NCBI GenBank assembly: GCA_020072805.1 | Contig: JAIQGC010000001.1 | Coordinates: 373-64,372 of the forward strand | Reading direction: 5' to 3' | DNA from: Terriglobia bacterium | GTDB lineage: Bacteria; Acidobacteriota; Terriglobia; Acidiferrales; UBA7541 | Length of the DNA: 64,000 nucleotides | Shown: one piece after another, positions 1,547-11,355 of the stretch | Numbering within the stretch: position 1 is the first letter of the stretch | Layout: each line of letters starts with the position of its first letter | Notes under the pieces: generated by a model | What the model was told of the DNA's origin: nothing | Seen by the model: only the letters and a program-made list of their open reading frames with translations | Databases searched by the model: none | Program-made: the position numbers and the translations under genes

Positions 1547-1623
1547 CGGGGCGTAGCGCAGCCTGGTAGCGCGCCTGGTTCGGGACCAGGAGGCCGTTGG
1601 TTCAAATCCAATCGCCCCGACCA
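1547..1623 (+). tRNA. tRNA-Pro (anticodon CGG)
   Basis: 77 nt. Acceptor stem CGGGGCG/CGCCCCG, anticodon arm CCTGG-TTCGGGA-CCAGG, T-loop GGTTCAAATCC, encoded CCA end. Confidence 0.97.
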
Positions 1624-1711: not shown

Positions 1712-1744
1712 AGGCCGAAGGTTCAAATCCTTTTGCCCCGACCA
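1712..1744 (+). repeat. Duplicated 3' end of tRNA-Pro (att-like scar 1)
   Basis: AGGCCGAAGGTTCAAATCCTTTTGCCCCGACCA matches tRNA 1591-1623 at 28/33 nt. The next 4 nt (CTTC) are also shared. Confidence 0.85.
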
Positions 1745-2047: not shown

Positions 2048-3949
2048 ATGGATAAGACTCGGGAGCATCGCGATCTTGGCATGGGGCGGCCCATCGCCCG
2101 GCGGGACTTCTTGAATGGTGTCGCCATCGGAATTACGGGTGCGTATGCTGCCTGGAACGGGATATCCGCGGAGGCTGCGCCGGTATCCACGATGGCGGAA
2201 GCAGCGCAGTACCCTCCTCTACAAACCGGACTGCGAGGTCAATACCCCGCGGCTGTCGAAGAATTCGAGCGCATTCGCCAGGGAAAGTTTACGCAATTTC
2301 CGGTGGCCGACAGCGAACTCCACGAAGAGTTTGACCTGGTCATTGTGGGAGGGGGAATCTCCGGCTTGTCCGCGGCGTATTTTTATCAGACAGCACTGGG
2401 CGCCGAGCAGCGCATCCTGATCCTGGACAACCACGACGATTTTGGCGGCCACGCCAAACGCAACGAATTTCAATATCGGGAGCGGACGTTTATCGGCTAC
2501 GGCGGCACCATGGGAATCGAGACGCCCTATCCGTACAGCTATTGCGCCAAGGCGCTCATCAAGGAACTGGGCATTGAAGTGGAGCGCGGCGCGGAATTCC
2601 ACAACCGCGAGATCGAGGAAAAGCACAATTTGGGCATCGGCGTGTTTTTCGACCGGGAACACTTCGGAGAGGACCGGCTGGTGGCGGGAGCGGGGCGCCT
2701 TCCCTGGAAAACATTTTTCGAAAAGGCTCCGCTCTCCGAAGCAGCCCGGAAGGACCTGATTCGCCTGCACGGCAAGAATCCTGATTACCTGGCGGGTTCC
2801 AGCGAAGCGGAAAAAAGAGCCCAGCTGGCCCGGATGAGCTATCAGGAGTTTCTGCTGAAGATTGCCAGGATCAACCCGGATGCGCTGCCTTTGTTTCTGG
2901 GAGAGGGTGGCCGAAACAATAAACGAGTGGACACCATGCCGGCGCTCGAAGCCGCGCGCCACGGGGCGATCGGCTTCAACGGCCTGGGTTTGAAGTTCGA
3001 GGAGAGTTTCAACGAAGGTTCCTACCTGTTTCACTTTCCAGACGGGAACGCATCGGTCGCCCGGCTTCTCGTTGGCAAGTTGATTCCCGCGGCTCTTCCC
3101 GGCAAACAATCCATGAACACCATCGTTCGGGCGCCGCTCGACTATGGAAAACTCGATGCCCCGGACTCCCCGGTGCGCATTCGCCTGAGCAGCCCGGTGG
3201 TGCGCGTGCAGCACGACGGGCCGGCGGAATCCGCGCGCGCCGTGCGCGTCGCTTACCGGTGCGATGGCAAACTCCGGGGCGTGCGGGCGCGCCACTGCAT
3301 TCTGGCCTGCTACAACGGATTCATTCCTTCCTTGCTGCCGGAGCTGCCCGAACGCCAGCGCGAGGCGCTCAACTATCCCGTCAAAGTGCCCATGATGTAC
3401 ACCAACGTGCTTCTGCGCAACTGGAGCGCATTTGAGAAGCTCGGTGTCTCCGCGATCAGCGCTCCGGGCATGTATCACACGGATTGCCGGCTCGATCCGG
3501 GCACCACCGTCGGAGGCTATCGCGGCGTAAGCACGCCGGAGGAGCCCATCCTGGTGCACCTGATGCGCAATCCGAATAAACCTGGGCTGCCCAGGAAAGA
3601 GCAGAACCGCGCCGGACAACAGGAACTGCTCTCGACGACTTTCGAACAGTTTGAATTTCAGATTCGCAGCCAGCTCGGACGCATGCTGGGGCCGGGAGGA
3701 TTTGATCCCGCTTCGGACATTGCCGCGATCACCGTCAACCGCTGGCCGTATGGATACGCCTATACTTACGACACCCTGGCGGACCCGGATGTGCCGCCGG
3801 AACAGCGCCCGCACGTGATTGGGCGGCAGCGCTTCGGACGGGTCACCATCGCCAACGCCGATGCCGGCGCCGCGGCCTTTACCAATCAGGCCATCGATGA
3901 GGCCCATCGCGCCGTGCAGGAACTCCTGGTGCACGAAGGGCTGACCTGA
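2048..3949 (+). CDS. Tat-exported FAD-dependent amine oxidoreductase, spermidine dehydrogenase (SpdH)-like
   Basis: Twin-arginine signal ARRDFLNG...AEA, FAD motif VIVGGGISGLSAA, DNHDDFGGHAKRNEF, ITVNRWPYGYAY, RVTIANADAG. RBS GGAG precedes ATG 2048, so I moved the start from the ORF-track 1991. Confidence 0.8.
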   Translation: MDKTREHRDLGMGRPIARRDFLNGVAIGITGAYAAWNGISAEAAPVSTMAEAAQYPPLQTGLRGQYPAAVEEFERIRQGKFTQFPVADSELHEEFDLVIVGGGISGLSAAYFYQTALGAEQRILILDNHDDFGGHAKRNEFQYRERTFIGYGGTMGIETPYPYSYCAKALIKELGIEVERGAEFHNREIEEKHNLGIGVFFDREHFGEDRLVAGAGRLPWKTFFEKAPLSEAARKDLIRLHGKNPDYLAGSSEAEKRAQLARMSYQEFLLKIARINPDALPLFLGEGGRNNKRVDTMPALEAARHGAIGFNGLGLKFEESFNEGSYLFHFPDGNASVARLLVGKLIPAALPGKQSMNTIVRAPLDYGKLDAPDSPVRIRLSSPVVRVQHDGPAESARAVRVAYRCDGKLRGVRARHCILACYNGFIPSLLPELPERQREALNYPVKVPMMYTNVLLRNWSAFEKLGVSAISAPGMYHTDCRLDPGTTVGGYRGVSTPEEPILVHLMRNPNKPGLPRKEQNRAGQQELLSTTFEQFEFQIRSQLGRMLGPGGFDPASDIAAITVNRWPYGYAYTYDTLADPDVPPEQRPHVIGRQRFGRVTIANADAGAAAFTNQAIDEAHRAVQELLVHEGLT

Positions 3950-4014
3950 GCCGGCGGGATGCGCGAGCGGAAGCGAGGGAACACGGTAACAATTTGGGAT
4001 CGCAGAATTTGGCC

Positions 4015-4554
4015 ATGAAGCGTGGAATTGCAATCTTCACTCTGCTCATTTTTCTGCCAGCTACGCTGGCGTGGCGCGAAGCTTCGGCGCGCGCGGCCAG
4101 GCAAGGTCAGAACGCCCCGGCAGCCAGGAGCGAACCGCCGGCGCAGCCGATTCCCTACAGTCATAAGAAGCACCTGGCCCTGGGGCTGAAATGCCAGCAG
4201 TGTCACCCTAACCCCGAACCGGGCGACCGCATGACTCTTCCCGCGGCAGGCCAATGCATGGCCTGCCATGTGACGATTGCCCGGGAAAAACCTTCCATCC
4301 AAAAGCTCGCGGAGTTTGCCAAATCGGGCCAAGCCATTCCCTGGGTGCGGTTCTACGTCGTCTCCGGCTGGGTCTATTGGAATCATCGCGTGCATCTGGA
4401 GGCCAAGATGACCTGCGCCATGTGTCACGGCCCGGTGGAAGAGATGGAGGTCATGGCCCGGGCGACCAATGTCACGACCATGGCTGGCTGCATCGAGTGT
4501 CACCGCAAGAACGATGCGAGCACCGGCTGTCAGTATTGCCACGCCGACAAATAG
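4015..4554 (+). CDS. Periplasmic pentaheme cytochrome c (cytochrome c3/ActA-like fold)
   Basis: Sec-type signal peptide. Five CxxCH motifs (CQQCH, CMACH, CAMCH, CIECH, CQYCH) plus the YSHKKH and WNHRVH distal-His motifs. Confidence 0.9.
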   Translation: MKRGIAIFTLLIFLPATLAWREASARAARQGQNAPAARSEPPAQPIPYSHKKHLALGLKCQQCHPNPEPGDRMTLPAAGQCMACHVTIAREKPSIQKLAEFAKSGQAIPWVRFYVVSGWVYWNHRVHLEAKMTCAMCHGPVEEMEVMARATNVTTMAGCIECHRKNDASTGCQYCHADK

Positions 4555-4797
4555 ATTCGCAAAGGACTGCGGAGGGGCTTGATTTCATGTCCCGCACGGA
4601 CAAGTCGAAGTCACTCGCAGGCAAGATGTACTGGCTCACCGCGCATAGGCTCCTGCCCGGGGATCCTGATTTCTCTCCCGGGGCGCCGGCGGAAATACGC
4701 GGGTTTCGTTCCTGCTTGCGCTTGGCCTGATCCGCATCATCAGGACGGCGAACAAGCCGAACCTGGCGCGGCAACGATTCTTCTTTGGAGGTTGCAA

Positions 4798-7700
4798 ATG
4801 AACACTTTCAGACTCTTGGCCATTCGGATTCTGGCTCTTGTGCTTCTCGTCTGCGGCAGCGCCCTCGCCCAGACTTCCACGACATCGCTGCAAGGCACCG
4901 TAACCGACCCCAGCGGCGGAGCCATTGCCAACGCCACGGTTGTGCTGGTTAACCCCGAGTCCAAATCGGAGAGGAGTACCACCACCGGCGCGCAGGGAGA
5001 GTACCGCTTCCAGTTTCTTCCTCCCGGAACCTACACGCTGACCGTCTCCGCCACGGGATTTGCCCGCCAAGAGCAGACTGGCCTGCAACTACTGGTCAAT
5101 ACGCCCGCAACGGCCAACGTGCAATTGAAGGTCGGAAGCGCCGCGGAGAGTGTTACCGTGAGTTCCGAACCACCGGCGCTGAATCTGGTGGACGCCTCCA
5201 TCGGGACCCCCTTCAATGAGACGCAGGTGAAACAGATTCCGCTCGAAGGCCGCAACGTTCCGGACTTGCTGAATATTCAGGCCGGCGTGACCTATCTAGG
5301 AAGAGAAGTGAACACAGAGCAAGACACGCGCAGCGGCGCGGTCAATGGCGCGCGCAGCGACCAGAGCAACATCACTCTCGATGGCGTGGACGTCAATAAC
5401 TTCAGTTCGGGATACGCTTTTACATCCGTCCTGCCGGTAACGCTCGACTCCGTCCAGGAATTCCGCGTGACCACCACGAATTACAATTCCGATCAGGGGC
5501 AAGGTTCGGGCGCCCAGGTGGCCATGATTACCAAGAGCGGGACGAATCTGTTCCATGGATCCGCCTACGAATACATGCGCAATACCGCGACCAGCTCCGC
5601 CGATTTTTTCACCAAGCAGTCCGAACTGGCCAGCGGCCAGCCCAACAAGCCGCTCAAGCTGATTCGCAATATTTTCGGAGTGTCCCTGGGCGGACCCGTG
5701 AAGAAAGACAAGCTGTTCTTTTTCACCAACTACGAAGGGACGCGCCGCCGGGAAGAGGTGAGCGCCGTGCGCACCATCCCCACGCCGTCGCTCTGCCAGG
5801 GAAACATTTCCTATGATAACGGCGCCGGCATCACCACCCTGACGCCGGCGGATATTCTGGCTCTGGACCCCGCCGGCATGGGGATCAATCCAGCGATTCT
5901 GGATCTCACCAACCCCAGCCAGCCGGGCGGGTACTTTGGCACGACCTTCTGCAACGGAAAGTATCCGACCAACGATACCTCCGTCGGGGATGGGAGGAAT
6001 TACGCCGGTTTTCGTTTCCGGGCCCCCATCAGCGAAAATAATAATGCTTTTATCGCGCGATTCGACTACCAGCTGACCTCGAACGGCAAACACACCTTGT
6101 TCTGGCGCGGGAACCTGCAGAATAAGAGTAATCTGGATGAGCCTTTCCTGCCCGGGACTCCCCCGGAACAGACCATCACCGACCACAGCAAGGGATTTGC
6201 CGTCGGATATACGGCGATTTTGAGCGCCAAGCTGGCCAATACCTTGCGTTGGGGATTGACCCGCCAGAGCACCGCTTGGACCGGAAACTCCAATCAGCCG
6301 TGGAACACTTTCCTGGGACTTGATCAGGGCATTGTCTATAGCCATAGCTTGCAGATGCCCGTGCATAACATCACCGATGATTTGTCGTGGACCAAGGGCG
6401 TGCACGCTCTGCAGTTCGGCGGCAATATCGGCATCGCCCGGGATCCCCGCGTCAGCTACCAGCACTCTTTCAGCATGGGCGTGGGAACCACGAGCTGGAT
6501 GGCCCCCACAAGTTTTGCCAACACCGGAGGCGGAAGCACGCTGGACCCAGCCAATCTGGGCTATCCAGAGCCTGTCAATACAATCGCTTATGATTATCCC
6601 ATGCTGTCCCTGCTGGGGATGGTTTCGCAGATGATCGGCAACTTCAATTACGACAAGAATGGCAATTCCTTGCCGTCTGGCGCACCGGTGGTTCGCGACT
6701 ACGCTCTGAACTGGTACGGCTTGTATGCCCAGGATACCTGGCGTCTCAAGCCGAATCTGACTGTTACCTACGGCCTGCGCTGGGAGATTTTGCCTCCGCC
6801 GTGGGAGGTGAACGGTTATCAGGCGTCTCCGACGGTCAATCTGGGTCAGATGTTTGACCAGAACGTGGCCAACATGCAGAAGGGCATCGGATTTGCCACC
6901 ATGACTCCGATTTCGTTCGTCCTGGGCGGCCCTGCCAATGGGGGGACCGGCTTCTACGAGTCCGAAAAGAACGATTTTGCGCCGCGCATTTCCGTTGCTT
7001 ACACCCCGCATTTCCAGAACGGCTTTATGCAGAAACTATTTGGCACGGGCGACAAGACCGTCTTGCGCGGTGGATTCGCCAAAGTCTACGACCGCCCCGG
7101 CATGCAGCTGATCAATACGTTTGACCAGAACGCACCCGCAGGCCTTTCCGCCACGGTGCAGAATCCCTGCTGCATTCCGGTGACGGACGGCGCCGAAAAC
7201 GTTCCGCGCATCACCAACATCAACGTGATTCCCCAGCTGGATCTGGCCAACAACCAATTCTTCCCGCTGGTGCCTCCGGGGGCTTTCCCGCAGACGCCCA
7301 ACCCCTTCGGCCAGGCCATCACCTGGGGAGTTGATCAGTCGCTCAAAAACCCCTATGCCTACACCATGGATTTTTCCATTGGCCGGCAACTGCCCAAAAA
7401 TTTCTCACTGCAACTTTCTTATGTCGGACGGATTGGGCGCAATCTGCTCACCCAGCGCGATCTGATGCAACCGCTCGATCTGGTGGATCCCAAGACGGGA
7501 ATTGATTACTACTCGGCCGCTGCCCGCATGTCCGAATTGGGACGCCAGGGCGTGCCGATTCCCAGCCTTAACGATGCCTTGGTCGGCCCCACCGCCGCCT
7601 TCTGGCATGACATGCTCCCGCCGCTCGCTGCCGGTGCCCAGTATTCCGTATTTTATGGCAGCGCGCCTCCGACAACGGACCTGATGCAAGCCATTTACAC

Positions 7701-8673
7701 TCTCTATACCACGGTGGACACCTATCCAGGGAACGAGGTCGTGGGTCTTGGCAACATCGACCTCTACTATGCCCTGAGCGACACACTCGGCAATTACTAC
7801 GACTTCGGCAACCCTCTGCCCACGCCCAATCCGCTGGTCGGAGACATGCTCAATGGCCAATTCTCCAGCATGTATGCATGGAGTTCCATCGGGAAGTCCA
7901 ATTACAATGGATTGCAAATCATTCTCCGCAAGCAGTCCAGCACCGGACTGCAATTCGATGTGAACTACACCTATTCCAAGTCCATTGACATCACCTCCGC
8001 GGCGGCTCGCGTAGGCTATAACCAGGGTCTGAACGGAAGCCAGTTGGTCAACGCTTTTTCACCCAATCAGAACCGTGCCGTCTCCGATTACGACACCAAG
8101 CATCAGATCAGCGCTGATTGGATTGCCTGGCTGCCTTTCGGCAAGGGAAAATATTTCGGCCGCGATGCCGGCAGCGTTTTGGATGCGGTCATCGGAGGCT
8201 GGCAGGTTTCCGGCCTGGCTCGCTGGACCAGCGGTTTCCCCTTCAGCGTGGGCAACGGCCAGTCCTGGGCCACCGACTGGAACTATTCCGGTCTCGCGAC
8301 TCTGCTCAGCCGGCCGGTCACCGGAGCGTTTCCGCAGCCGGATGGTTCGGTGAGTGTGTTCGCCAACCCCGCGGCGGCCAGAGCTGCCTTCGACAACACC
8401 TACCCGGGCCAGAGCGGCTCGCGCAATGTTCTCCGCGGGCCGGGCTATGCCGGGTGGGACATGAGCGTGAACAAACGCTGGAAGATCCACGGCGAACGCC
8501 AGGGCCTGCAATTTCGCTGGGAGATCTTCAATCTTCCGAACCTGAAACGCTTCAACACCCAGTCCGTTGCCAGTCCCTATACGCTTCAGCAGTTGCCGGG
8601 ATCGTTCGGTGATTACACCAGCCTGTTGACCGAAGCCCGCGTCATGCAATTCGCGCTGCGCTTTGACTTCTAA
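4798..8673 (+). CDS. TonB-dependent outer-membrane transporter with N-terminal carboxypeptidase-regulatory-like domain
   Basis: RBS GGAGG before ATG 4798, signal peptide, GTVTDPSGGAI domain, plug motifs (LDGVD, VQEFRVTT) and C-terminal ARVMQFALRFDF. Confidence 0.92.
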   Translation: MNTFRLLAIRILALVLLVCGSALAQTSTTSLQGTVTDPSGGAIANATVVLVNPESKSERSTTTGAQGEYRFQFLPPGTYTLTVSATGFARQEQTGLQLLVNTPATANVQLKVGSAAESVTVSSEPPALNLVDASIGTPFNETQVKQIPLEGRNVPDLLNIQAGVTYLGREVNTEQDTRSGAVNGARSDQSNITLDGVDVNNFSSGYAFTSVLPVTLDSVQEFRVTTTNYNSDQGQGSGAQVAMITKSGTNLFHGSAYEYMRNTATSSADFFTKQSELASGQPNKPLKLIRNIFGVSLGGPVKKDKLFFFTNYEGTRRREEVSAVRTIPTPSLCQGNISYDNGAGITTLTPADILALDPAGMGINPAILDLTNPSQPGGYFGTTFCNGKYPTNDTSVGDGRNYAGFRFRAPISENNNAFIARFDYQLTSNGKHTLFWRGNLQNKSNLDEPFLPGTPPEQTITDHSKGFAVGYTAILSAKLANTLRWGLTRQSTAWTGNSNQPWNTFLGLDQGIVYSHSLQMPVHNITDDLSWTKGVHALQFGGNIGIARDPRVSYQHSFSMGVGTTSWMAPTSFANTGGGSTLDPANLGYPEPVNTIAYDYPMLSLLGMVSQMIGNFNYDKNGNSLPSGAPVVRDYALNWYGLYAQDTWRLKPNLTVTYGLRWEILPPPWEVNGYQASPTVNLGQMFDQNVANMQKGIGFATMTPISFVLGGPANGGTGFYESEKNDFAPRISVAYTPHFQNGFMQKLFGTGDKTVLRGGFAKVYDRPGMQLINTFDQNAPAGLSATVQNPCCIPVTDGAENVPRITNINVIPQLDLANNQFFPLVPPGAFPQTPNPFGQAITWGVDQSLKNPYAYTMDFSIGRQLPKNFSLQLSYVGRIGRNLLTQRDLMQPLDLVDPKTGIDYYSAAARMSELGRQGVPIPSLNDALVGPTAAFWHDMLPPLAAGAQYSVFYGSAPPTTDLMQAIYTLYTTVDTYPGNEVVGLGNIDLYYALSDTLGNYYDFGNPLPTPNPLVGDMLNGQFSSMYAWSSIGKSNYNGLQIILRKQSSTGLQFDVNYTYSKSIDITSAAARVGYNQGLNGSQLVNAFSPNQNRAVSDYDTKHQISADWIAWLPFGKGKYFGRDAGSVLDAVIGGWQVSGLARWTSGFPFSVGNGQSWATDWNYSGLATLLSRPVTGAFPQPDGSVSVFANPAAARAAFDNTYPGQSGSRNVLRGPGYAGWDMSVNKRWKIHGERQGLQFRWEIFNLPNLKRFNTQSVASPYTLQQLPGSFGDYTSLLTEARVMQFALRFDF

Positions 8674-8739
8674 GCGCCTCGCGGAAGGGACTGAACTCTG
8701 CTCTGGCCGGGGAGGCCGCCCCGGCTTGGCGCATCGCCC

Positions 8740-10077
8740 ATGACCACACTCGCTCGCAAGCTTCGCCTCATCGATTATCTTGCCTTGGGCTTTGGCACCA
8801 TGGTCGGCACGGGCTGGCTAGTGGTGATGGACGACATCCTGCAGCGTGGAGGGCCGCTCGGCGCCATCCTCGGTTTCACGGCGGGCGCCCTCATGCTCCT
8901 GCCAATCGGCTACGTCTACGGCAAGCTGGTGAAGTTAATCCCCGATGCCGCCGCGGAGGTGGCCTACACGGCGCGGGTTTTTCCGCCCGGCGTGAGCTTC
9001 GTCACGGGCTGGATGATGTTTCTGGCCTACTTTCTGACTTGCCCCTTCGAAGCCCTGGCGGCCGGAAAAATCCTGGGGTATCTTTTCCCTTCGCTGAATT
9101 CCATTGAGCTGTACCGCATCGGAGGTCATCCCGTTTATTTGCCTCACCTTGTTCTCGGGCTGGCCATTGCGGTCTTTTTCACCTGGTTGAATTACCGGGG
9201 GATTCAGGCCAGCACCCGCTTCCTCAAGTTCACCACTTTCACCTTTCTGGCCCTGGTCATCGGCTTTGCCCTGGCCGGCGGGAAACACGGTTCCGTGGCC
9301 AATCTGTATCCGGCTTTTTCTCACTCTCCGCTGATTTCCATTCTGCTCGTGTGGCAGGTGGTTCCCTGGCTGATGTCCGGATTCGAATCCGTGGGCAAAA
9401 GCGCGGAAGAGGCCAGCCCGGAATTCAAGAGCGGCAATTTTTCCGTGGCCATCCTCATGACCATCTTCGCGGGGCTTACCTTCTTCTGCCTGGTGATCGG
9501 CGCCGTGTCATACGTCGCTCCCTGGCAAAGCCTGAATGGCAGCTTGCAGTTTCCCATTGCTGTCGCCTTCGAAAATGCTTTTCACGCCCACTGGATCGTG
9601 AATTTCATTCTGGGCACGGCCCTGGTGGCTCTGCTGCAAGCGTTCAACGCCAACATGGTTGCTTCGTCGCGCCTGCTCTTCGCCATGGGCCGCCGCAATC
9701 TCCTGATTCCTTCCATGGGCAATGTTCATGTGCTGAACCAGACTCCGGTCCTGGCCATCTTCGGAGTCGGGGGCGCCACGGCCGTGGCCATCTTCTTCGG
9801 TGAAGCCGGTCTCGTGCCTATTCTGGAAGTGGGTGCGGTGGCCTGCGCGGTGGGATGGATGTCCGCCTGCGTATCCTATTTTATGATGAAACCCAGCCTG
9901 ATGGACCGCGCCGCCGCGCTGTTTGGATTTCTGGTGACCTCGGCGATGATCCTGGTCAAGGTCCTGCCCCTCGTTCCCGGCCATTTTACGCGCTATGAGT
10001 GGATCGCCCTGGGCATCTGGGCCGTGATCGGATTTCTCGTTCGACTGCCGGCCCGGCCAGGAACGCTCCGCCCCTAG
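8740..10077 (+). CDS. APC-family amino acid/polyamine permease
   Basis: About 12 hydrophobic segments, GTMVGTGW in TM1 and GFESVGKSAEE in TM6. Confidence 0.88.
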   Translation: MTTLARKLRLIDYLALGFGTMVGTGWLVVMDDILQRGGPLGAILGFTAGALMLLPIGYVYGKLVKLIPDAAAEVAYTARVFPPGVSFVTGWMMFLAYFLTCPFEALAAGKILGYLFPSLNSIELYRIGGHPVYLPHLVLGLAIAVFFTWLNYRGIQASTRFLKFTTFTFLALVIGFALAGGKHGSVANLYPAFSHSPLISILLVWQVVPWLMSGFESVGKSAEEASPEFKSGNFSVAILMTIFAGLTFFCLVIGAVSYVAPWQSLNGSLQFPIAVAFENAFHAHWIVNFILGTALVALLQAFNANMVASSRLLFAMGRRNLLIPSMGNVHVLNQTPVLAIFGVGGATAVAIFFGEAGLVPILEVGAVACAVGWMSACVSYFMMKPSLMDRAAALFGFLVTSAMILVKVLPLVPGHFTRYEWIALGIWAVIGFLVRLPARPGTLRP

Positions 10078-11054
10078 TCCCCGCTCATCTCCACGGCAGC
10101 CGGCAGACCCTGGCTGGCCCGCGAGCGAAAGACGCGCGGGCAGACGCCAAAGCGCTGCTTGAATACGCGGCTAAAATGGGCGGAATCATTAAAACCCCAG
10201 AAAAACGCGATCTCCGTGATGCTTTTCGCGCGCAGCCGCGGATCCGCGAGATCGCTCCGGCAATGCCGCAGGCGCTGCGTTCGAATCCACTCGGCCAGCG
10301 TGGACCCGTGCACCGAAAAAAGGCGGTGCACATGCCGCACGGAAAGATTCAGCGCCGCGGCAATTTCCGCCGGCCTCAGGGTCGTTTCCGTCAAGTGGGC
10401 ATCAATGTATTTCAATATCAGCGAAGCGGGCTCGCTCCCGCGATTCGTGCCCGCCGCCGGCCTCCCCGGCGTTCCCACGCATGCCGCCAGGATGCGCAAA
10501 TAGGCTTCGATGGCGGCCGCGCCTTCTTCCCAGGTCAGCTCCTCCGCCTGCCGGTATAGCGAGGTGGAAAGATGGAACAGAAAAGTGCCCAGTCCGGACT
10601 CCCCCGGGATTCTTCGGGCCACCGGCAGCTCGCCGAGGCGCACCCGGCTTTGCATCAGCGATCGCGGCACGCGCAGGTAAAGCCGCGCGCAATCGCCGGG
10701 ACAATCCGAAGACCAGGGCCGCCCGGAGTCGATCAGAGTGACATCGCCCTTCTTCAGCACCGCCGCCTTTCCATCCTGGCAATATCTGCGCAGCCCGGCC
10801 AGCTGCGTGATGACAATCCACGCCCTGCTCTCCGCATTCAAACTGAACGAGGGAAACTTATTGAAGGAAACCGCGCTCGAGGAAAAAAGCGTCATTTCCA
10901 AATCGGCCACTTTTCGGCGCTCGATCGAGCCGTGAAAAGGAAAGCGCTTTGGAAACTGAAAATTGCAATCGCCGCAAATCTGCTTGGCGTTGGACAGCCA
11001 GGCTTCCTGGCGGTCCGGCGCGGGAATCAGATCCGTTGTGAATGAGTGTGACAT
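10074..11054 (-). CDS. AraC-family transcriptional regulator (FeaR-like N-terminal domain)
   Basis: C-terminal double HTH (IAAALNLSVRHVHRLF; ITEIAFFWGFNDSAHFSRVFKQRFG). The start could alternatively be 11069. Confidence 0.9.
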   Translation of the reverse strand: MSHSFTTDLIPAPDRQEAWLSNAKQICGDCNFQFPKRFPFHGSIERRKVADLEMTLFSSSAVSFNKFPSFSLNAESRAWIVITQLAGLRRYCQDGKAAVLKKGDVTLIDSGRPWSSDCPGDCARLYLRVPRSLMQSRVRLGELPVARRIPGESGLGTFLFHLSTSLYRQAEELTWEEGAAAIEAYLRILAACVGTPGRPAAGTNRGSEPASLILKYIDAHLTETTLRPAEIAAALNLSVRHVHRLFSVHGSTLAEWIRTQRLRHCRSDLADPRLRAKSITEIAFFWGFNDSAHFSRVFKQRFGVCPRVFRSRASQGLPAAVEMSGD

Positions 11055-11355
11055 TTTTCCCTGGTGCAACTTGTACTCGCCGGCTGATCTGGCTCTGTGT
11101 GGTTCAGCGTATACTTGCCATTTCTTATCTTGTTTTCTTCAATATCCACCCTAGAGAATTCGATATTGGCCGTCAGGCTAACACGCCTTTGGAATTTCTA
11201 ACAAGGGTTTTTGTGCGGTTTCTCTTTGTCGCGGTAGTACCGGACGGACGCAGCATGCTTTATTGGAAACCGCAGTCCGATCAGCAGCCCGAATACGGGA
11301 AGAAGTTACACAGCTATCCGGCGCTGATTCAATGCAATGGATTGTTTTAAAGCGG

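Follow-up and report, generated by a model that had tools for sequence, protein, structure and literature searches.

The window analysed here is a stretch of 64,000 nucleotides from a soil Terriglobia bacterium of the phylum Acidobacteriota (contig JAIQGC010000001.1 of assembly GCA_020072805.1), and this report concerns two neighbouring genes on its forward strand. The first (2048..3949, + strand) encodes P0001, a flavin adenine dinucleotide (FAD) amine dehydrogenase of 633 residues that belongs to the spermidine dehydrogenase (SpdH) family and has a predicted twin-arginine translocation (Tat) signal; the second (4015..4554, + strand) encodes P0002, an exported, ActA-like pentahaem cytochrome c of 179 residues. 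Judged from sequence comparison, P0001 appears to have given up the internal haem site of its family, with the separately encoded pentahaem cytochrome in its place.

P0001 was homologous to Pseudomonas aeruginosa SpdH over residues 16-626 (phmmer against PDB 7D9F-7D9J; E=3e-137; identity ~43-45%). A structural model was built with AlphaFold2 (AF2) on an alignment of 58 sequences (alignment A1) and reached a mean predicted local distance difference test (pLDDT) score of 85; its top PDB matches in Foldseek were SpdH chains (7d9g with template modelling (TM) scores of 0.84/0.91 and a root mean square deviation of ~2.5 Å), and putrescine and monoamine oxidases ranked far below them. The SpdH-like identity put forward in the first-pass annotation, a reading made from the DNA sequence alone, was thus borne out by full-length homology and by fold. 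Pfam covered the FAD-binding end of the protein only (NAD_binding_8 and DAO, residues 96-141), where a Rossmann-type stretch, DLVIVGGGISG, occupies residues 96-106 and includes the FAD-binding motif GGGISG (residues 101-106; 2348..2365, + strand), with G101, G103, S105 and G106 invariant in alignment A1. Equally invariant were I16, R18 and R19 near the N-terminus, where the twin-arginine pair R18-R19 (2099..2104, + strand) lies in IARRDFLNG and aligns with ISRRDFLNG of SpdH, and Tyr451, which corresponds to SpdH Tyr443. SpdH Asp282 aligned with Arg293 of P0001; Arg is fixed at this position throughout the clade to which P0001 was assigned (see below) and canonical acidobacterial homologues mostly have Gly. 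Because this substrate-contact residue differs, the substrate of P0001 need not be spermidine and the annotation 'spermidine dehydrogenase' is unsafe for these genes.

The downstream gene was also as previously described, an exported five-haem cytochrome c gene following after 65 nt (P0001 stop at 3949, P0002 ATG at 4015). The N-terminus of P0002 is a hydrophobic segment (signal or anchor), the protein contains exactly five CxxCH motifs, at C60, C81, C134, C159 and C172, and the isoelectric point of the mature protein was calculated as 8.9. A scan of the stretch between the two genes revealed no terminator-like site, and a promoter scan of the locus yielded nothing useful. Pfam placed P0002 among the c7/c3 class III cytochromes (Cytochrome_C7, c3, CIII), and in a phmmer search of the PDB residues 43-167 matched ActA of alternative complex III (8k9e, 2e-23; 6f0k, 1e-20; also 6lod and 6btm; down to 3e-19). 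P0002 is not encoded together with ActB-F, its neighbours being the SpdH-like gene and an outer-membrane barrel gene; true ActA-ActB pairs are exemplified by loci L108 and L110. Assignment to QrcA was not supported, with a score of 68 bits for NF041781 against a cut-off of 180.

Two motifs had drawn attention to P0001 at the outset, GLRGQYP (residues 61-67) and NRWPYGY (residues 564-570), both of which were seen in the translation. In each a Tyr replaces a His of SpdH, the aligned motifs being GLRGSH46P and NRWSH562GY. These histidines had been named as the haem ligands, which is correct for His562 and incorrect for the first: according to a 2025 study of SpdH, the surface haem b of the P. aeruginosa enzyme is chelated by His54 and His562, and both are kept by all homologues examined there (PMC12564564). 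The paper and the PDB chains share one numbering, as the D282A and Y443A variants show by departing from wild type at exactly these chain positions (282 and 443), and counting along the alignment gave His46 for GLRGSH, His54 for EVAH and His562 for NRWSH, so that the N-terminal ligand sits 8 residues downstream of the motif His. In P0001, Tyr66 (2243..2245, + strand; phmmer alignment) is aligned with His46, a residue that, going by the same paper, is not a haem ligand; Glu74 (2267..2269, + strand) is aligned with the axial ligand His54 and Tyr568 (3749..3751, + strand) with the axial ligand His562, both by alignment to SpdH and to the genome homologues. The conclusion that ligands were lost is unaffected, since the actual N-terminal ligand is missing as well: as far as the alignments tell, P0001 is without both haem b axial ligands of SpdH.

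His46 as a haem ligand was ruled out by PMC12564564 and by the variability of its column across the family. Among 150 family representatives (representatives of 50%-identity clusters) this column held His in 79, Thr in 12, Tyr in 7, Asn in 7 and other residues in the rest, and sphingomonad homologues have Tyr there yet retain both ligand histidines. Four ligand-less sequences from Vicinamibacterales (L009, L011, L012 and L014) retain His in the His46 column.

To determine how far ligand loss extends, 80 genome loci (L numbers) were fetched, open reading frames (ORFs) were called and 114 SpdH homologues were aligned, of which 100 had both histidines and 13 had neither. Of the 150 cluster representatives (~115 full-length), 105 keep His54 and His562; most of those without the His/His pair are fragments spanning one site, and only ~10 are truly substituted. 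In a maximum-likelihood tree of 112 full-length sequences, 100 of which keep both histidines, the 12 ligand-less ones formed one clade with a support of 100 in the Shimodaira-Hasegawa-like approximate likelihood-ratio test (SH-aLRT), and a single state change was needed to account for the loss. Three groups were distinguished in the clade: 7 members including P0001, with Tyr or Asn at position 568; the 4 Vicinamibacterales members, with Asp at this position (SpdH 562); and L013 alone. The clade is a natural counter-example to the claim that all SpdH homologues keep both His.

Residue frequencies were then taken from the 121 closest database homologues of P0001, each at least 72% identical to it. 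Position 74 was Asp in 77, Glu in 30, Ala in 8, Gly in 4 and other residues in the remainder, with His in none, and D/E/A/G/S/Q occur there across the clade; position 568 was Tyr in 76, Leu in 23, His in 14 and Phe in 8, and Asn, Asp or Trp in remoter clade members. Clade-specific changes cluster at the former haem motif (G68A, A73F, H74D/E, D78x, R524Q, R537L/F and H568x), and no newly conserved His, Met or Cys was found in the ligand-less clade. This pattern of substitution fits decay of a cofactor site and not a switch to Tyr ligation, as compared at the level of aligned residues. The first-pass annotation had suggested a heme-less or Tyr-ligated subfamily; a distinct ligand-less clade was indeed recovered, and Tyr ligation is unlikely because Tyr568 is not conserved. 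Among the matches listed, each at least 72% identical to P0001, ~120 clusters at 90% identity were counted, and the clade is abundant in soil metagenomes.

Linkage to cytochrome genes was recorded for the subclade of P0001, namely the 7 tree members and 4 further members picked because they differ at positions 74 and 568. At 11/11 loci the operon included a multihaem cytochrome c gene. In all seven tree members (the window, L004, L005, L006, L007, L008 and L010) it lies on the same strand directly downstream, and 6/7 of these cytochromes are homologues of P0002. The added members were P0065 (D/L at 74/568; L087), P0033 (E/F; L089) and P0013 (A/Y; L090), with the cytochrome gene directly downstream after 7, 15 and 6 nt, respectively, and P0095 (D/H; L088 2426-6887), whose operon consists of a pentahaem cytochrome, a pyrroloquinoline quinone (PQQ) dehydrogenase and the SpdH-like gene. 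Taken together, a pentahaem gene is directly downstream in 9/11 loci, L088 has one two genes upstream, and L008 has, in the pentahaem slot, an unrelated 520-residue heptahaem cytochrome with C-terminal tetratricopeptide (TPR) repeats (7882-9441). Gaps to the cytochrome gene were ~1-100 nt, and 1-16 nt in most loci; an apparent gene overlap at L010 is due to uncalled start codons. The L088 operon (2426-6887) follows an outer-membrane barrel gene, and its single cytochrome may serve two dehydrogenases. Among canonical His/His genes, 2/100 had an adjacent multihaem gene, one of the two being another SpdH copy, located in L004 behind the cytochrome gene already counted there. Fisher's exact test for ligand loss against cytochrome neighbour gave p=7e-7 over the 80 phylogenetically non-independent genome loci, and this value was not weighted heavily, both traits falling on what is essentially a single branch.

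The cytochrome itself was followed beyond this subclade. The source genome has three close paralogues of P0002 (52-53% identity), making four stand-alone copies with P0002, and each paralogue is directly downstream of a Tat-signal Amino_oxidase-family flavoprotein of 556-579 residues; these flavoprotein-pentahaem pairs lie on the - strand of contigs C88 and C55 (L084 5004-7275; L085 4990-7270; L086 5021-7424). At L085 a gene for a MoCoBD (molybdopterin-binding) protein converges on the pair. In a survey of other Acidobacteriota, limited to the 20 best P0002-like genes, ~12/20 adjoined PQQ dehydrogenases, 2/20 adjoined glucose-methanol-choline (GMC) family dehydrogenases and 2/20 were true ActA genes beside ActB. 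One of the GMC loci (L109 3830-6934) has the ActA-like pentahaem after a GMC flavoprotein and a small Tat subunit (Gluconate_2-dh3), and the other (L092 2360-4466) has a GMC flavoprotein followed by the pentahaem, with no small-subunit gene identified. Since its paralogues adjoin amine-oxidase-fold, PQQ and GMC enzymes, the P0002 family is to be regarded as a reusable periplasmic dehydrogenase partner. A cytochrome unique to P0001 was ruled out, as paralogues pair with other dehydrogenases, and the earlier description of P0002 as a dedicated cytochrome holds for the regularity of the linkage (11/11 subclade loci versus 2/100 canonical genes) and not for exclusiveness. The canonical His/His SpdH paralogue of the source genome (L003, contig C116, 6511-12865) is followed by two very large multihaem genes, the first encoding 650 residues with 23 CxxCH motifs and the second 627 residues.

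On this evidence we consider it probable (roughly 0.6) that P0001 is a dehydrogenase of the SpdH family without haem b and that the pentahaem cytochrome c encoded with it accepts its electrons. The Tat-exported FAD enzyme would no longer carry haem b; its FAD would be reduced by an amine substrate and would then deliver electrons directly to P0002, a basic ActA-type pentahaem that is presumably co-transcribed and exported by the general secretory (Sec) pathway, and P0002 would in turn pass the electrons on to the respiratory chain. E72 and E190 were gained in the cytochrome-linked subclade and nowhere else, and position 74 is D/E there; beside the basic P0002, this suggests electrostatic docking of the cytochrome at what was probably the haem site.

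Several points weigh against this reading. An AF2 model is no proof that a cofactor is missing, 14/121 of the closest homologues have His at position 568, and the 65-nt gap between P0001 and P0002 is longer than in relatives. Ligand loss is one event and cytochrome linkage one subclade, so that their co-occurrence is close to a single observation; the one partly independent piece of support for coupling is the non-orthologous cytochrome in L008. Finally, no CxxCH-bearing ORF was found within ~6 kb of the SpdH-like genes of the Asp subclade (L009, L011, L012 and L014) and of L013, so that this cytochrome is not a strict prerequisite for ligand loss. The proposed coupling of ligand loss to the cytochrome is in this way confined to the P0001 subclade. 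The narrower expectation that His-to-Tyr replacement goes together with an adjacent cytochrome gene did not hold outside that subclade: P0146, with His54 kept and Tyr at 562, has no cytochrome neighbour, nor has P0142, with His54 kept and Met at 562, and single substitutions are accordingly not linked to cytochromes. P0123 was left out of this check on independent replicates, its contig being too short to judge.

The cytochrome-less relatives (the Asp subclade and L013) also lend themselves to an explanation in which haem b was lost and the enzyme became an oxidase using O2, or a dehydrogenase with some other acceptor, the cytochrome being unrelated or serving another dehydrogenase. P0002-type cytochromes do serve many different dehydrogenases, and at L088 the cytochrome gene adjoins the PQQ dehydrogenase and not the SpdH-like gene. 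This is nonetheless unlikely, given that all 11 subclade loci carry a cytochrome gene, mostly across gaps of 1-16 nt, that at L008 the slot was refilled by non-orthologous replacement and that canonical homologues rarely have such neighbours (2/100). There is also a precedent in NicA2/Pnao and CycN, where Tat-exported enzymes of the amine-oxidase fold are proven dehydrogenases (PMC9396064).

A separate, well-supported clade of canonical His/His SpdH paralogues adjoins ligand-less genes, cytochrome-less loci included (L004 8423-10411; L007 982-2970; L008 3834-5963; L011 9480-11504; L012 7881-9872; L014 9067-11469). Such an arrangement would be expected if the ligand-less protein and a canonical paralogue with haem b worked as a functional pair or heterodimer in which the latter supplied the electron exit, and it is the recurrence of one specific clade at these six loci that speaks for it. 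Against it, tandem SpdH paralogues are common family-wide, and the source genome has a single paralogue, which is on contig C116 and falls in another clade; we regard a heterodimer as quite improbable for P0001. Slightly less probable still is an enzyme that binds haem b through Tyr568, with or without Glu74, and then reduces cytochrome c: Tyr-ligated haems occur in other proteins, Tyr is the commonest residue at 568 (76/121) and the clade has Tyr66 almost throughout, but position 568 is Leu, Phe, His, Asn, Asp or Trp in other members, of which P0065 (Leu) and P0033 (Phe) keep the cytochrome gene, position 74 varies too, canonical Arg524 and Arg537 have become Gln and Leu/Phe, Ala73 has become a bulky Phe, and no compensating ligand appears, for which reasons Tyr ligation was discarded as the principal explanation.

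Acidobacteriota are a dominant and poorly characterised soil phylum, and the distribution of P0002 relatives within it permits a wider proposal, made tentatively and with the odds somewhat against it: ActA-type pentahaems could serve throughout the phylum as an interchangeable electron sink in the periplasm, one that has repeatedly taken over from the native relays of unrelated dehydrogenases. In SpdH the relay so displaced would be the built-in haem b, in GMC enzymes the trihaem subunit, and in PQQ and amine-oxidase-fold enzymes a monohaem partner. The SpdH clade would be the clearest case, its cofactor site having visibly decayed once the external module was in use, and the cytochrome may dock on the acidic EEFD/E patch where the haem used to sit.

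The genes that follow P0002 were assigned by Pfam. An outer-membrane beta-barrel transporter with an N-terminal CarboxypepD_reg domain (4798..8673, + strand; OMP_b-brl_4, 3e-141; CarboxypepD_reg, 1.5e-24) is followed by an APC-family amino acid/amine permease (8740..10077, + strand; AA_permease_2, 6e-26) and by a convergent AraC-family regulator (10074..11069, - strand; HTH_18 and AraC_binding_2). The barrel gene recurs beside orthologous pairs at L006, L007, L008, L087, L088 and L089, the permease at L004, L006, L087, L089 and L090, and the regulator at L087, L089 and L090, in varying gene order. Going by gene content, the neighbourhood fits a catabolic unit for an imported amine, in which the pair, the transporter, the permease and the regulator would together provide for amine import, oxidation in the periplasm and uptake of the product.

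Upstream of P0001 lies a tRNA-Pro(CGG) gene (1547..1623, + strand; ARAGORN), and the last 25 nt of its 3' end (1599-1623) are repeated at 1720..1744 (+ strand; pattern search, 2 matches versus 0 expected). The repeat copy is ~100 nt past the tRNA gene and the SpdH-like/cytochrome island starts just downstream, so the repeat is a probable integration-site scar of the island. No orthologue of P0001 was found in the 24 genomes of the same genus that were searched, where the best match was 52% identical; the nearest relatives outside the genus (71% identity) come from a different family within the order. Horizontal acquisition of the unit is probable.

Literature searches returned no description of the ligand-less SpdH clade or of its cytochrome partner, nor of pentahaem partners of PQQ dehydrogenases or amine oxidases. 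The 2025 study, the one paper found to touch on this question, expected SpdH homologues to pass electrons directly to electrodes, the ligand histidines being universal (PMC12564564). If the haem-b-less, cytochrome-coupled reading of P0001 is true, canonical and ligand-less enzymes form a natural before-and-after pair for the evolution of flavin-to-haem electron exit routes, a multihaem partner is added to the cytochrome-dependent amine dehydrogenases of the NicA2-CycN type, and a reusable periplasmic electron-acceptor module is identified in Acidobacteriota.

To our knowledge, no flavoenzyme with this surface haem b fold other than SpdH has been characterised structurally. P0001 shares with SpdH (PA3713; 7D9F-7D9J) the fold, the Tat-type N-terminus, the FAD motif and the Tyr443 equivalent; it differs from it in the absence of His54 and His562, in the remodelled surroundings of this motif and in the replacement of Asp282 by Arg293, and also in that a pentahaem cytochrome c gene follows P0001, canonical members having none. 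ActA (6F0K, 6LOD, 6BTM, 8K9E) resembles P0002 in its five CxxCH motifs, similar size and N-terminal hydrophobic segment, but P0002 stands alone beside a dehydrogenase gene, without actBCDEF. The combination of a periplasmic FAD dehydrogenase with a multihaem cytochrome c is known from gluconate 2-dehydrogenase and fructose dehydrogenase, and in the classical three-subunit flavoprotein-cytochrome c dehydrogenases of this kind the cytochrome is a trihaem one of class I and a further subunit is a small Tat protein. These enzymes have a GMC flavoprotein fold, whereas that of P0001 is the amine oxidase/SpdH fold; the acidobacterial GMC dehydrogenases at L092 and L109 use the same pentahaem family as P0002. 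Closest in logic may be NicA2 and Pnao of Pseudomonas putida S16, Tat-exported dehydrogenases that pass electrons to CycN, a c-type cytochrome encoded next to them (PMC9396064): P0001 likewise has a Tat motif, the amine-oxidase fold and an adjacent c-type cytochrome gene, and the P0001-P0002 pair would be analogous to the NicA2/Pnao-CycN system. The two systems differ in that CycN is a monohaem class I cytochrome and P0002 an ActA-type pentahaem, and in that NicA2 belongs to another branch of the amine oxidase superfamily, one that never had a haem b site.

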